A stretch of DNA of 64,000 bases from Escherichia coli (GTDB lineage Bacteria > Pseudomonadota > Gammaproteobacteria > Enterobacterales > Enterobacteriaceae), in assembly GCF_003334815.1 (NCBI RefSeq), contig NZ_QOWO01000005.1, one strand, 5' to 3'. Numbering within the stretch: the stretch's first letter is position 1; the number at the start of each line of letters is the position of its first letter. This document shows positions 2,800-62,466 of the stretch, one piece after another. Both the position numbers and the translations under genes were made by a program. The notes under the pieces were generated by a model, which was not told the DNA's origin, made no database searches, and was given only the letters and a program-made list of their open reading frames with translations.

Positions 2800-2961
2800 A
2801 TGTCACTGGAAAATGCCCCTGACGATGTCAAACTGGCTGTCGATTTGATTGTGCTGCTGGAGGAAAATCAGATCCCTGCCAGTACCGTGCTGCGCGCGCT
2901 GGATATTGTAAAGCGTGATTATGAAAAGAAATTAACGCGCGATGATGAGGCGGAAAAGTGA
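2800..2961 (+). CDS. ybaM: small protein of unknown function (DUF2496), 53 aa
   Basis: ATG at 2800 to TGA at 2959-2961 read manually (below ORF-track length cutoff); 14 nt downstream of priC. Confidence 0.75.
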
Positions 2962-3014
2962 GAAATAAATGGGGTCGCTAAATGTCCCCTAAGGTTGCGG
3001 GCAAACGCAAAACT

Positions 3015-3113
3015 GCCTGATGCGCTACGCTTATCAGGCCTACACCGCTCCTGCAATATATTGAATTCTTGCGGTTTCGTAGGCCGGATAAGGCGGTCAC
3101 GCCGCATCCGGCA
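3015..3113. repeat. REP/BIME cluster (two REP units)
   Basis: gcctgatgcgctacgcttatcaggcctaca and gtaggccggataaggcggtcacgccgcatccggca; typical REP palindromes. Confidence 0.8.
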
Positions 3114-3142
3114 TGAACAACGCGCACTTTGTTAGCAATCTC

Positions 3143-3174
3143 GGGGCAACTAAATGTTGCCCCCTTTCGTTTTT
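3143..3174 (+). terminator. rho-independent terminator-like hairpin after priC-ybaM
   Basis: Perfect 8-bp stem ggggcaac / gttgcccc with loop taaat, followed by a T-rich tract. Confidence 0.55.
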
Positions 3175-6100
3175 ACCCTACCGCTGGCGTCGGGTCATCG
3201 CCTTTGTAGTCGCGTTTTACTTCCGTCACCTCATCGCCCTTCTCGTTGTGCAGATGCACTTCAAGCTGGTTAAAGGCAATGTTGATGTCGTTTTCACGGC
3301 ACAGCTGATCGATAGTACGGTTCAGCTCATCGACAGTACGACTACGGTCACGCAGTTCACGCACATACAGACGCAGCTCATGATCCAACGTGCTGGCACC
3401 AAATGCCGTAAAGAAGACTTCCGGCATTGGTTCGTGCATCACCCTTGGGTGCTCAGTCGCCGCCTTCAGTAACACTTTACGCACTTTTTCCAGATCGGAG
3501 CCATAGGCCACGCCGAGACGGATCACCAGACGCGTAGTAGTGTCAGTCAACGACCAGTTGATCAGACGCTCGGTAACAAACGCTTTGTTCGGGATGATCA
3601 CTTCTTTGCGATCGAAATCGGTAATCGTTGTCGCACGAATACGGATCTTACTTACCGTCCCCGAGAAGCTACCAATGGTTACCGTATCGCCAATACGCAC
3701 CGGACGTTCGAATAGAATGATCAAACCGGAGACGAAGTTACCGAAAATTTCTTGTAAACCAAAACCAAGACCTACGGATAATGCTGCGGCCAGCCACTGG
3801 AGTTTATCCCAAGAGACGCCCAGCGATCCGAACACCGTCATCGCACCAACAGCAATAATGATGTAGTTAAGGATGGTAGTAATGGCATACGACGCGCCCT
3901 GGCGCATATTCAGTCGCGAGAGCACCAGCACTTCCAGTAAACCAGGCAGGTTGCGAATCAACGCCCAGGCCACCATTGAGGCGATAATCGCAAACAACAG
4001 ACTGCCCATGGTGACGTTTTTCACCACCGCAGCGCCAGCTTCAGTGCCGTTGTAATGCCAGAGCGTGATGCTGTCGAGATAGCTGAACACGGTGATCAAA
4101 TCGGACCAAATTGCCCAGAACATGACACCGAACAGCGCAAACATCAGCAACATGGTAATACGCAGCGTCTGCTGGTTAACTTGCTCCAGTGCAATGGTGG
4201 GTTCTTCCGGCGGTTCAGCACCTTCTGCGCCCTCTTTCACCAGATTCTGCCGACGCGCCAGCGCACGACGCCAGGCGATACGCCGCGCCGCTACGCTTAA
4301 GCCACGCAGTACCGTCTGGTACAGCAGGTTCCAGATGATCACCAGATAAACGGTTTCAATCCAGCGTCCTGCCAGACGCAGCGTAGTGTAGAAGTAGCCT
4401 GTAGCAGTCAGCACCATCAGCGCAATCGGGATTATCGACAGCACGGTAATGGTGACCAGTCGCATGGTGTGCGACTCTTTATCACGCCAGCTTTCGCGGC
4501 ACATCGGCCATACCAGGAAGGCAATCAGCAGCAGGTTGAAGAAAATCATCGCTTGCCCCAGCACATCATCCATCAGATGCAGCGGGGAAAGTTCTGCCAC
4601 CACAGACCAGAAATGGATAGGCAGCAATGCGAGACTGATGCGGACAATTTGCCGACGCCAGTGGCTGGTCTGCTGTTCCGGCATGCCGAAGTGACGTACG
4701 GCAACGCCGTTTTTCTCCAGTACCTTCCAGCACAGGCCAAACACCAGCCAGAATATCGCCAGTTTTTTGCTGAACGACCATAGCAGTTCGCTGATGTTGA
4801 GCTGCATGGTCAACAGAATCAGGCCAACCGCGAGAATAATCAGGCACACCGGCAGCGCACGGATCAGGTCGATAAGGATCGCTTTTGGTGTGTTGAGCTG
4901 GCTGTCGTTACGCAGGGAACCCACAGCGGAAGCCAGTTTTTGTTGATACGCTTTCAGCCAGCCCAGACGCCAGTGGATCAGCCCGGCAATCAACAGCAGC
5001 GGCAAACCAGCGAGGAAAGCGATAAAAACGGCGGGCCAGGCTTTTTGCCAGTTCACCGTGATTTTCATCGACTTAAATTCATCTTTCAGGCTTTGCGGGA
5101 ACGCTTTGATCCAGTCCCAGTCCATTGGACGGTTACTGTTCACCCAAAAGATTTGCTGAGTCAGGATGGATTTCAGGTTTTTCGACACACTCATTAACTG
5201 CTGCTGGTTGATTTGCAGGTTAATGGCCATCATCAGCTGGTTACCCAACTGTTTGTTGAGTTGATCCAGCAATTCGCGACGCATATCAACCACTTGCAAT
5301 AACGCATCGTGAACTTCGCTGTTGACTTCGTTGGTGTGACCTTCTTCCAGTTTGTTGACGAACGCATCGCTCTGGAAGAGTGCATCACGCTGCTGGTTAA
5401 CTTCAAACTGTTCGAGACGCAAATCCGCGATGCGGTTGGTCATGTTTTCCAGTTCATCCGCCGAGGGCAGCGTTTGTTGTTGCTGGTAAAGGATACGAGA
5501 CAACAGCAGGCTGCCCTTCAGGACGGCAATCTGCTCTTTAATATTGCGTTCCGATTGCAGCGCCCGCTCCAGCCAGTTTTTGACTTTAATGTTTTGCTGC
5601 ATCAACTGATTACCGTTTTCAGTCGCGGTAATCAGACGCTGACTTAACTGCTGGTTAATTTCCAGTTCCTGCTTCACCAGCGGATTAGCCTGAATACGCG
5701 CGGCTTCATCCGGGGAGACGGCTTCCTGCGCCGTTTTTTCGGTTAAAGTCAGGCGCTTGCTGTTTACCGCTTCTTGCAACAGTTGTAACTGGTGCTCCAG
5801 ACGAGCGCTGTTCGCCGTCACGTAATCACGTTGCTTTTGCAAGGTATCCTGCAAGACGGTGTTCCCTTCCAGGCTTTTACGCTGCTGGTCAATCTCCGCA
5901 TTCAGCAACGCCTGCTGGGCCTGCATTAACACTTTCTGGCTGGGACGTAAGGCTGTCTCGCCGACATCAGTCCCATCCAGACGACTGCGAATTTGTTGCA
6001 GCTGCTGCGAAGCGTTATACATCGCATTTTGCACGCGTTCGGGCTGCGTCTGTAACGAAACCAGCTGGCTGTTATAAGACGCCAGATCGTTTTGTGCGTT

Positions 6101-6535
6101 TTGCAAATCGTCCAGCGCCTGGGCAACGCGAGTTTCCAGCTGGCGCAACGACAGCGTGCTCAGAATTTTGCGCGTTTCTTCGTCGTTATCGACATCGCTA
6201 AGTGCTGTTAACGCCGCGGTCGCCTGGCGCATTTTTTCCGGCGCTTCAGCGACTTTTTGCCGTAGCTGAACTGTCTCTTCTTTTATGCGATCGATTTTAT
6301 CGAGGGTGGCTAATGTATCTGTCAGATCCTGCTGCACCAGTTTGTCCTGAGCAGAAAGATCTTTTTGTTTATTTAGTGAGTCAAGTTGCGCCTGCAGGTC
6401 CGCTTTTGTCGGCAGATCACCATTCGATGACGCTCGCGCAAACGCCGTGTTCTGGCATAACAAGACAAAAACAAAAGCAATAAATGCTGAAAAAACAAAA
6501 TGCCGTGATCGTTTGTAATACTGGAACATAGTCAT
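3173..6535 (-). CDS. mscK: potassium-dependent mechanosensitive channel MscK (KefA/AefA)
   Basis: ORF 3173..6535 (-), 1120 aa; long coiled-coil periplasmic region, multiple TM helices, MscS-like C-terminal domain. Confidence 0.95.
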   Translation of the reverse strand: MTMFQYYKRSRHFVFSAFIAFVFVLLCQNTAFARASSNGDLPTKADLQAQLDSLNKQKDLSAQDKLVQQDLTDTLATLDKIDRIKEETVQLRQKVAEAPEKMRQATAALTALSDVDNDEETRKILSTLSLRQLETRVAQALDDLQNAQNDLASYNSQLVSLQTQPERVQNAMYNASQQLQQIRSRLDGTDVGETALRPSQKVLMQAQQALLNAEIDQQRKSLEGNTVLQDTLQKQRDYVTANSARLEHQLQLLQEAVNSKRLTLTEKTAQEAVSPDEAARIQANPLVKQELEINQQLSQRLITATENGNQLMQQNIKVKNWLERALQSERNIKEQIAVLKGSLLLSRILYQQQQTLPSADELENMTNRIADLRLEQFEVNQQRDALFQSDAFVNKLEEGHTNEVNSEVHDALLQVVDMRRELLDQLNKQLGNQLMMAINLQINQQQLMSVSKNLKSILTQQIFWVNSNRPMDWDWIKAFPQSLKDEFKSMKITVNWQKAWPAVFIAFLAGLPLLLIAGLIHWRLGWLKAYQQKLASAVGSLRNDSQLNTPKAILIDLIRALPVCLIILAVGLILLTMQLNISELLWSFSKKLAIFWLVFGLCWKVLEKNGVAVRHFGMPEQQTSHWRRQIVRISLALLPIHFWSVVAELSPLHLMDDVLGQAMIFFNLLLIAFLVWPMCRESWRDKESHTMRLVTITVLSIIPIALMVLTATGYFYTTLRLAGRWIETVYLVIIWNLLYQTVLRGLSVAARRIAWRRALARRQNLVKEGAEGAEPPEEPTIALEQVNQQTLRITMLLMFALFGVMFWAIWSDLITVFSYLDSITLWHYNGTEAGAAVVKNVTMGSLLFAIIASMVAWALIRNLPGLLEVLVLSRLNMRQGASYAITTILNYIIIAVGAMTVFGSLGVSWDKLQWLAAALSVGLGFGLQEIFGNFVSGLIILFERPVRIGDTVTIGSFSGTVSKIRIRATTITDFDRKEVIIPNKAFVTERLINWSLTDTTTRLVIRLGVAYGSDLEKVRKVLLKAATEHPRVMHEPMPEVFFTAFGASTLDHELRLYVRELRDRSRTVDELNRTIDQLCRENDINIAFNQLEVHLHNEKGDEVTEVKRDYKGDDPTPAVG

Positions 6536-16509: not shown

Positions 16510-16623
16510 GGGTGGGGGCCCTGCCAGCTACATCCCGGCACACGCGTCATCTGCCTTGGCTGCTTCCTTCCGGACCTGACCTGGTAAACAGAGTAGCGTT
16601 GCGGGAGAACCAACAGAGCCCCC
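16510..16623 (-). ncRNA. ffs: 4.5S RNA (signal recognition particle RNA)
   Basis: Reverse complement reads GGGGGCTCTGTTGGTTCTCCCGCAACGCTACTCTGTTTACCAGGTCAGGTCCGGAAGGAAGCAGCCAAGGCAGATGACGCGTGTGCCGGGATGTAGCTGGCAGGGCCCCCACCC, 114 nt, matching recalled ffs including the conserved domain IV region. Confidence 0.95.
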
Positions 16624-18776: not shown

Positions 18777-18809
18777 AGCCGGAGGTGAAAACCGTCCGGC
18801 TGTTTTTTG
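18777..18809. terminator. bidirectional rho-independent terminator between convergent tesB and amtB
   Basis: Stem agccgga / tccggct flanked by an A-run upstream and T-run downstream, so the hairpin is followed by a U-run on both strands. Confidence 0.7.
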
Positions 18810-28233: not shown

Positions 28234-28259
28234 GCCGGATGCGGCTTGAGCATCCGGCA
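28234..28259. repeat. REP-like palindrome between convergent queC and fadM
   Basis: gccggatgc-ggcttga-gcatccggc, perfect 9-bp inverted repeat. Confidence 0.65.
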
Positions 28260-34183: not shown

Positions 34184-34266
34184 AGAGCTCTCTCTTAGTT
34201 TAATTTCCGCCAGGTAATCAGATGACACGACTGTGCTTCACGCCATCTATTAACATGTACGTCAGT

Positions 34267-34293
34267 ATATGGGGATGTTTCCCCCACATTCAA
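34267..34293 (-). promoter_or_regulatory. lon heat-shock (sigma32-type) promoter containing the GGGG-N7-CCCC motif
   Basis: Minus strand reads TTGAAT-gtgggggaaacat-CCCCATAT, resembling sigma32 -35 and -10 elements; about 85-110 bp upstream of the lon ATG. Confidence 0.7.
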
Positions 34294-34370
34294 CGCCGAG
34301 AATAGAGGAAAAATTAAAGGGGAGATAAAATCCCCCCTTTTTGGTTAACTAATTGTATGGGAATGGTTAA

Positions 34371-61942: not shown

Positions 61943-61951
61943 TTATGAAAA

Positions 61952-61980
61952 TGCCGGGATTTATTCCCGGCATTTCTGAT
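61952..61980 (+). terminator. rho-independent terminator-like hairpin after tsx
   Basis: Stem tgccggga / tcccggca with loop tttat, followed by a T-rich tract. Confidence 0.6.
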
Positions 61981-62005
61981 TGTTAACAACGTGTGCTTTG
62001 TTCAT

Positions 62006-62104
62006 GCCGGATGCGGCGTAAACGCTTTGTCCGGCCAACAAAAGCACGTAAATTCAATATATTGCTGAAATAACGTAGGCCTGATAAGCGTAGCGCATCA
62101 GGCA
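62006..62104. repeat. REP/BIME cluster (two REP units)
   Basis: gccggatgcggcgtaaacgctttgtccggcc and gtaggcctgataagcgtagcgcatcaggca. Confidence 0.75.
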
Positions 62105-62118
62105 ATTTTACGTTTTAA

Positions 62119-62466
62119 TCACTTCTTCTTGTTCATCATCGCTTTCAGGTCAGCGAATGGGTTGTACTTCGCTTCACCGACATCTTTCTGCGCATCTTCC
62201 CCTGCGATAACGGTCGTACCATACTGATCCGCTTCGGTATATTTCGAATGCTCATGATCGTGGCAATAGAGACACAACAATTCCCAGTTACTGCCATCTT
62301 CCGGGTTATTGGTATGGTCGTGATCAATGTGGTGAACGGTAAGTTCACGCAGGTTGGAATAAACAAACTCGCGGGAACAGCGACCGCAGACCCACGGATA
62401 GATTTTTAATGCTTTTTCGCGATAGCCGCTTTCTAACCGCGCATAGTTTTTTGGGATGATAGCCAT
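62119..62466 (-). CDS. yajD: HNH-nuclease-family protein of unknown function
   Basis: ORF 62119..62466 (-), 115 aa; Cys/His-rich motif (CGRCSREF...HHIDHDH...CLYCHDHEH). Confidence 0.88.
   Translation of the reverse strand: MAIIPKNYARLESGYREKALKIYPWVCGRCSREFVYSNLRELTVHHIDHDHTNNPEDGSNWELLCLYCHDHEHSKYTEADQYGTTVIAGEDAQKDVGEAKYNPFADLKAMMNKKK

Follow-up and report, generated by a model that had tools for sequence, protein, structure and literature searches.

The window analysed here, a stretch of 64,000 nucleotides of an Escherichia coli genome (contig NZ_QOWO01000005.1), follows, in reverse orientation, the gene order of strain MG1655 between about 490 kb and 430 kb, and the 801 bases around its first repeat cluster are 100% identical to DH1 and other K-12 derivatives. 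Three clusters of REP sequences lie between rsmS (ybaM) and mscK (copy 1), yajR and yajQ (copy 2), and tsx and yajD (copy 3), all of them extragenic and located between the stop codons of convergent genes (Table 1). An initial annotation had placed the clusters between convergent or co-directional gene ends; the convergent arrangement was found at all three sites, and no site lies between co-directional genes. REP units were typed by ungapped (Hamming) comparison of the window with three published E. coli REP sequences at an identity of at least 72%, and the unit names were taken from three papers: Nunvar et al., who identified the Y and Z2 sequences; Durrant et al., who list three REP query sequences; and Ton-Hoang et al., who distinguish three E. 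coli REP types, y, z1, and z2. Exactly six matches were obtained in the window and none in 50 shuffles, each cluster comprising one Z1 and one Y unit on opposite strands, and the REP tail motif CTTATCMGGCCTAC gave five matches in the window against 0.38 expected. The six matches place the pairs within 1-2 bases of the positions reported earlier (3015-3113, 47785-47872, and 62006-62104). The motif search that had been proposed as a check classed all three sites as REP pairs, and a failure to do so, named in advance as the outcome that would speak against the annotation, did not occur.

Table 1. Coordinates of the three repeat copies, their component parts, and the neighbouring genes and hairpins in the window.
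Feature	Position	Strand	Remarks
rsmS/ybaM	2800-2961	+	Convergent with mscK
Degenerate second palindrome copy GGGGTCGCTAAATGTCCCC	2971-2989		6 nt before left end of copy 1
Copy 1, full unit	2991-3141	+	nhmmer E 5.3e-44
Copy 1, Z1-side terminal motif TGCGGGCAAACGCAAAACT	2996-3014	+	Family consensus TGATGACAAACGCAAAATT; inverted repeat of other end
Copy 1, Z1 unit	3015-3043	+	29/29 to published sequence; + strand reads ...CTAC, GTAG head on - strand
Copy 1, L linker, 35 nt	3044-3078		IHF-type core ATTCAATATATTG at 3054-3066, - strand
Copy 1, Y unit	3079-3112	+	32/34; GTAG head on + strand; AA/GC stem mismatch present
Copy 1, Y-side terminal motif ATGAACAACGCGCACTTTGTTAGCA	3113-3137	+	Shared ending seen in the initial annotation
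Terminator palindrome GGGGCAACTAAATGTTGCCCC, then T-rich tail	3143-3163		5 nt past right end of copy 1
mscK	3173-6535	-	Convergent with rsmS/ybaM
yajR	ends 47769	+	Convergent with yajQ
Copy 2, full unit	47772-47895	+	nhmmer E 1.2e-27
Copy 2, Z1 unit	47785-47813	+	28/29; A to C at 47790
Copy 2, linker, shortened, 24 nt	47814-47837		11-base deletion removes IHF-type core CAATATATTGA (alignment)
Copy 2, Y unit	47838-47871	+	28/34; decayed; GTAG kept
yajQ	47897-48556	-	Convergent with yajR
tsx	ends 61942	+	Convergent with yajD
tsx terminator hairpin	61949-61975	+	Abuts Y-side end of copy 3
Copy 3, full unit	61976-62116	-	nhmmer E 2.5e-40
Copy 3, Y unit	62006-62039	-	31/34; head GTTG, not GTAG; two more stem changes
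Copy 3, L linker, 35 nt	62040-62074		Core ATTCAATATATTG at 62052-62064, + strand
Copy 3, Z1 unit	62075-62103	-	29/29
yajD	62119-62466	-	Convergent with tsx

Related elements were searched for in one genome per species with a strict pattern consisting of the Z1 tail, 20-50 nt, and the Y head. At least 120 loci were obtained, those among the matches listed belonging mostly to Escherichia, Pseudocitrobacter, Citrobacter, and Kosakonia; the modal match length among the matches listed, 62, is the value of copy 1. A profile was built from 84 copies of other genomes (Escherichia, Pseudocitrobacter, and other genera), each with flanks of 40 and 55 nt, and an nhmmer search with it gave strong matches at three places only in the window, which are the three clusters. 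The extents of these matches indicate true units of about 125-150 bp, larger than the coordinates given in the initial annotation, as the profile alignment continues past the REPs in all three copies by 13-24 nt beside Z1 and by 24-30 nt beside Y.

When the three regions were aligned, the third reverse-complemented, they revealed a common plan of terminal motif, Z1, linker, Y, and terminal motif, with a mean column identity of 82%, flanks included, which bears out the near-identical architecture described earlier. The unit order had been called common to the first two clusters, which is correct for those, with the limit that the third, being inverted relative to copies 1 and 2, has the same order on the other strand. 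Likewise, the shared ending catgaaca(a)(a/c)gc(g/a)cac reported for two clusters is real there and is also found in the third read on the other strand, so that an ending CATGAACAA.GC.CAC is present in all three copies. The family consensus places TGATGACAAACGCAAAATT directly before Z1 and TGAACAAAGCGCACTTTGTCAGCA directly after Y, and the two ends of the family are inverted repeats of each other (consensus TGATGACAAACG... and ...CTTTGTCAGCA) of about 15-16 nt.

According to the definition of Ton-Hoang et al., BIME-1 consists of z1 and y with a long conserved L linker, often carrying an IHF site, and occurs in single copies; in the literature it is described as one Y and one Z1 over about 140 bp, its presence or absence typically varying from isolate to isolate. 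Each site in the window holds a single unit, with one profile match, one REP pair, and no tandem array, and copies 1 and 3 show every sequence feature of BIME-1. With a probability of about 95%, the three sites are copies of BIME-1 (RIP, for repetitive IHF-binding palindromic elements, or RIB), the single-copy class of E. coli bacterial interspersed mosaic elements (BIMEs), including the function and spread that are drawn below from what has been reported for the family. There is no essential difference between BIME-1/RIP/RIB and the three sites; copy 2 is decayed, with an 11-base linker deletion, and the Y unit of copy 3 carries GTTG. The type check suggested in the initial annotation accordingly returned BIME-1 in all three cases.

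An assignment to BIME-2 or atypical BIMEs, the gyrase-binding, tandem class with Y and Z2 units and short linkers, could draw on the Y units and inverted REP pairs at the sites and on the mention of gyrase in the initial annotation. It is nevertheless highly improbable, given that no Z2 match of at least 72% identity occurs anywhere in the window, that Y is paired with the short Z1 in every case, and that a long conserved L linker and a single pair without tandem array are found at each site. Strong gyrase binding is likewise a property described for BIME-2 and atypical BIMEs and not for BIME-1. Hardly credible at all is the proposal that the sites are terminator hairpins evolved locally, outside any dispersed repeat family: their location at 3' ends between convergent genes and their good RNA folds (z-scores from -2.8 to -6.1) would agree with it, but the REP hairpins lack a T run, megablast queries spanning copies 1 and 3 matched medians of at least 19 and at least 17 places per E. 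coli genome, and a profile from other genera matches about 150 nt, non-hairpin parts included. The reading as BIME-1 copies is therefore retained in what follows.

The remark of the initial annotation that there is nothing unusual about these repeats stands, as they are ordinary, catalogued BIME-1 elements. The observation is already known, the three sites being catalogued K-12 repeats; in the MG1655 REP annotation used in a 2026 preprint, REP43 (ybaM/mscK, 98 bp) occupies the place of copy 1 and REP37 (yajD/tsx, 98 bp) that of copy 3. The RefSeq records of MG1655 and W3110 carry no repeat features at these sites, so precise BIME-1 typing is useful for annotation. A search of the whole window against Rfam at the gathering score gave no match at the three sites; its sole matches, sraA and small SRP RNA at 34255-34350 (+) and 16519-16615 (-), are unrelated. 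The window also contains REP38, REP39, REP41, and REP42 of the MG1655 annotation (55915-55951, 50036-50061, 28234-28258, and 18777-18801), single or partial REP-like hairpins between convergent genes that were outside the initial finding; REP38, REP39, and REP42 appear under REP labels in a table of bidirectional terminators, and REP41 coincides with the listed terminator 464806-464841.

Among the family matches, some showed other arrangements or unexpected origins. In E. albertii, four tandem pattern matches of Z1, L-like linker, and Y about 147 bp apart were observed at one locus (L011:6971-7474), and two tandem pattern matches with further BLAST-detected copies at another (L029:1245-1924). 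Because BIME-1 is described as single copy, these tandem units are probably atypical BIMEs. Units of Z1, linker, and Y were also found in a 262-bp contig filed under Desulfosporosinus sp. OT (L031), where the spacing is that of standard BIME-1, and in a contig of a Bacteroidales MAG (L032); contaminating enterobacterial DNA is the most likely explanation for both.

The comparison with other E. coli strains proposed in the initial annotation distinguished two copies that are present or absent, 1 and 3, from copy 2, which is nearly fixed. The copy 1 allele occurs in 3881 of 5426 complete E. coli genomes. Genomes without it, such as O157:H7, have a shorter allele in which the terminator hairpin is single and of another sequence and the 3' end of rsmS also differs; the two alleles are thus old, and more than a clean insertion separates them. 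In two such genomes (O157:H7 and 2012C-4221; L004 and L006), compared with window positions 2919-2961, rsmS measures 165 nt instead of 162 nt, and its last codons and terminator hairpin differ. Copy 1 is orthologous in E. albertii (L027:1826-2075 against 2991-3141 of the window), being 96.7% identical overall and identical at 97 of 98 positions in the REPs and linker, locus-specific linker bases included, while the comparison values are 73% identity for mscK third codon positions and 80% for priC. This conservation points to constraint or concerted evolution. The hairpin at 3143-3163 is a listed MG1655 bidirectional terminator (489902-489933), serving mscK and the priC-ybaM transcript; since it lies beyond copy 1, rsmS transcripts probably cross the element before ending, which would place copy 1 within a 3' UTR.

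Copy 2 was present, with the same length, in 5285 genomes of the E. coli set. Several changes in the stem of its Y unit are unpaired, which would weaken the hairpin on our reading of the sequence, and, judged by these characters, copy 2 is a decayed BIME-1 member. REP pairs of other types or with other linkers occur in orthologous spacers, namely yajR-yajQ of Pseudocitrobacter faecalis (L102:9000-9230) and the rsmS-mscK region of a Citrobacter MAG (L120:900-1120), indicating that different BIMEs have repeatedly occupied the same intergenic sites. The junction of copy 3 with tsx was found in 3548 genomes of the E. coli set of 5426, and in strain clone D i2, which is without copy 3, only the tsx hairpin stands beside the yajD stop codon. 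At tsx-yajD of Pseudocitrobacter (L101:1530-1790 and L075:12030-12360, compared with window 61949-62121), a BIME-1 lies in the opposite orientation with the tsx terminator hairpin on both sides of it. The opposite orientation indicates an independent insertion at the same terminator.

Candidate IHF sites had been proposed for the clusters. Copies 1 and 3 have the same core, ATTCAATATATTG, as the consensus of the 84 copies, a sequence that differs from the IHF consensus WATCAANNNNTTR at one position, and binding of IHF to the BIME-1 linker is reported in the literature (Ton-Hoang et al.; Nunvar et al.). The proposal is plausible at copies 1 and 3 on the strength of that literature and fails at copy 2, where the core is lost and a scan of the linker for the IHF pattern gave no match. 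When one mismatch is allowed, the IHF consensus occurs 57 times in the window where 50.7 matches are expected, which is no enrichment, and the case for binding is thus made by the literature and not by the motif; an IHF ChIP-seq paper does not discuss REPs. By analogy with the family, the L linkers of copies 1 and 3 would bind IHF as DNA; in copy 2 this site is gone.

At the RNA level, all six strands folded more stably than their shuffles, with the z-scores given above. The hairpins called by intrinsic-terminator scans (3143-3163, 61949-61975, and 47891-47906) adjoin the elements or lie at their edge, and none of them is a REP unit. Studies on the family suggest that the units may lie in 3' UTRs or read-through transcripts, where their hairpins would slow 3' exonucleases, and that the hairpins may promote pausing and Rho-dependent termination, thereby limiting antisense transcription into the convergent gene. 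In vitro, Rho sites start immediately beyond REP43 and REP37. The strand concerned is the one whose transcription crosses the terminator and element and continues into the convergent gene, a placement in keeping with the part that BIMEs are reported to play in Rho-dependent attenuation. According to the 2026 preprint, REP effects on termination and mRNA decay are context dependent, and the half-lives of REP-flanked genes are on average no longer.

As for their spread, work on the family suggests that BIME-1 copies move as non-autonomous elements, probably via the REP-associated Y1 transposase (TnpA-REP/YafM), and may be lost by excision. For binding and cleavage in vitro, TnpA-REP needs a GTAG 5' of the palindrome and a mismatch in the stem (Ton-Hoang et al.). 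The transposase gene lies outside the window; every Z1 unit has GTAG, as do the Y units of copies 1 and 2, whereas the Y unit of copy 3 reads GTTG. Because of this change and the decayed stem of the copy 2 Y unit, the intact Z1 units, and not the Y units of copies 2 and 3, are the likelier putative RAYT substrates. Each Z1 also contains the exact 11-nt sequence that the bridge recombinase of IS621 naturally targets, ATCAGGCCTAC, at 3033-3043 (+), 47803-47813 (+), and 62075-62085 (-).

The flanks of related BIME-1 copies were compared for direct repeats, using 66 copies with REP-free flanks among the matches listed, 80 nt of left against right flank, and, as the threshold for duplication, a direct-repeat score above the 99th percentile of mismatched-locus controls. 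A flanking direct repeat was detected in 24 of these 66 copies among the matches listed, at about 20 distinct loci (L075, L101, L110, L111, L116, L127-L134, and others), divided among E. albertii (6/15), E. coli (4/14), and Pseudocitrobacter (14/32). The repeat is locus specific, 12-39 bp long, and mostly forms a hairpin whose base carries a few A/T pairs. In most cases a spacer of about 5 nt (about GAGAC) separates its left copy from the left end of the element, and another of about 5 nt (about ATCTG) separates the right end from the second copy. Folding is more stable in the flanks adjacent to the element than in sequence 80 nt away, the means on the right side being -10.6 and -5.2 kcal/mol (p = 2e-6). 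Empty alleles provide a direct comparison: at aspC-gloC, uvrB-yvcK, and yddM-fdnI of E. coli they have exactly one palindrome followed by a T run, and the filled alleles have palindrome, element, palindrome, and T run. K-12 has lost the left palindrome copy at uvrB-yvcK. At yddM-fdnI, E. coli 6FA (L134) shows palindrome, element, palindrome, element, and palindrome, a tandem as expected from unequal exchange between the repeats; in strain 405 (hit H167), this locus contains an IS200C insertion.

In the window, copies 2 and 3 have no flanking duplication, and only copy 1 has a degenerate trace at 2971-2989. The local score of this trace against 3143-3163 is 8.0, below the control 99th percentile of 10.4 and not significant alone; the trace is conserved in other E. 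coli and E. albertii and fits the flanking duplication of the family. Taken together, these data allow a tentative proposal, to which we give somewhat less than even odds, that BIME-1 inserts at the foot of intrinsic-terminator palindromes, duplicating the palindrome in full and giving the order palindrome, GAGAC, element, ATCTG, palindrome, T run. The length of the duplication tracks the target palindrome, which suggests cuts on both strands at the base of an extruded hairpin or cruciform, or template switching there, as its origin. Three other accounts were set aside. A target defined by C|T cleavage at the hairpin foot, after the in vitro specificity of TnpA-REP, was dropped because the repeats usually include 2-3 A/T pairs past the G+C stem, so that the junctions fall within A and T tracts. 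That the flanking hairpins are inverted copies was ruled out, as the loops and asymmetric flanks match in direct orientation, and an import of the hairpins with the element was ruled out by their agreement, locus by locus, with the one hairpin that the empty allele carries. No description of the flanking duplication was found in the searchable open literature; older subscription papers (Bachellier 1997; Boccard and Prentki 1993) were outside this scope, and it may already be known there. The 2026 preprint describes REP insertion as "semi-random", with a mechanism not established.

Both the function and the spread drawn from the family literature have an alternative that deserves more weight than those concerning class. 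The elements might be inert relics, with no IHF binding or RNA effect, kept merely through slow removal. Copy 2 has no IHF core and a decayed Y unit yet is almost fixed, copies 1 and 3 are missing, with nothing visible in their stead, from roughly a third of genomes, and reported REP effects are variable, all of which would suit this explanation. However, only 1 of 98 positions of copy 1 differs from E. albertii, compared with 27% of mscK third codon positions, and this conservation, which includes the locus-specific linker, argues for constraint on copy 1 at least; moreover, copies 1 and 3 have Rho sites and a mapped terminator beside them. Inertness is accordingly considered unlikely. Slightly less unlikely, though still doubtful, is a spread via a DDE-type transposase, as in a conventional miniature inverted-repeat element, or via template switching at stalled forks, in place of the Y1 transposase. 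This would be in keeping with the terminal inverted repeats of about 15-16 nt and with the flanking direct duplications (24/66 among the matches listed), since Y1 enzymes of the IS200/IS605 type make no such duplications according to the literature. Against a DDE enzyme, the duplications vary from 12 to 39 bp and track the local palindrome, whereas the DDE stagger is fixed, and no candidate DDE transposase was identified in this analysis; against both routes, TnpA-REP is reported to bind and cleave BIMEs in vitro and can act on both strands. Mobilisation by the Y1 transposase thus remains the preferred reading.

Several known systems resemble the elements described here. BIME-2 and atypical BIMEs (e.g., REP325) share with the three sites alternating REP units, the same Y unit, and the same suspected transposase, and differ from them in having Z2, short variable linkers, tandem arrays, and a strong gyrase target, which are BIME-2 features. 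Pseudomonas REPINs, described by Nunvar et al. as analogous to BIME-1, likewise consist of two inverted REPs and a spacer and are non-autonomous elements with a single-copy Y1 transposase (RAYT); however, their sequence is unrelated, with no IHF linker and no reported conserved terminal motifs beyond the REPs. Insertion directed by structure or by REPs is also known from IS621 and IS1397, which insert into REPs, and IS1272, which inserts into inverted repeats. Unlike BIME-1, these are autonomous and insert into REPs or replace the target inverted repeat without target duplication, while in the present case the REP-containing element is itself the insert. The neisserial Correia element is similar to BIME-1 in its short length, terminal inverted repeats, internal IHF site, 3' UTR location, and target duplications, but Correia elements make a fixed short target duplication, whereas in the related BIME-1 copies a whole palindrome of variable length is duplicated.

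The finding as first given, three ordinary repeats in K-12, changes nothing, and only the palindrome duplication across the wider family is potentially new. The choice of sites and the spread of REP and BIME elements have been open for about 40 years, and a duplication spanning the palindrome would give a testable model of structure-directed integration at terminators. If true, it would account for the location of BIME-1 at 3' ends and in 3' UTRs upstream of a still-working terminator, as well as for the later excision of whole elements or their tandem duplication through the flanking repeats.
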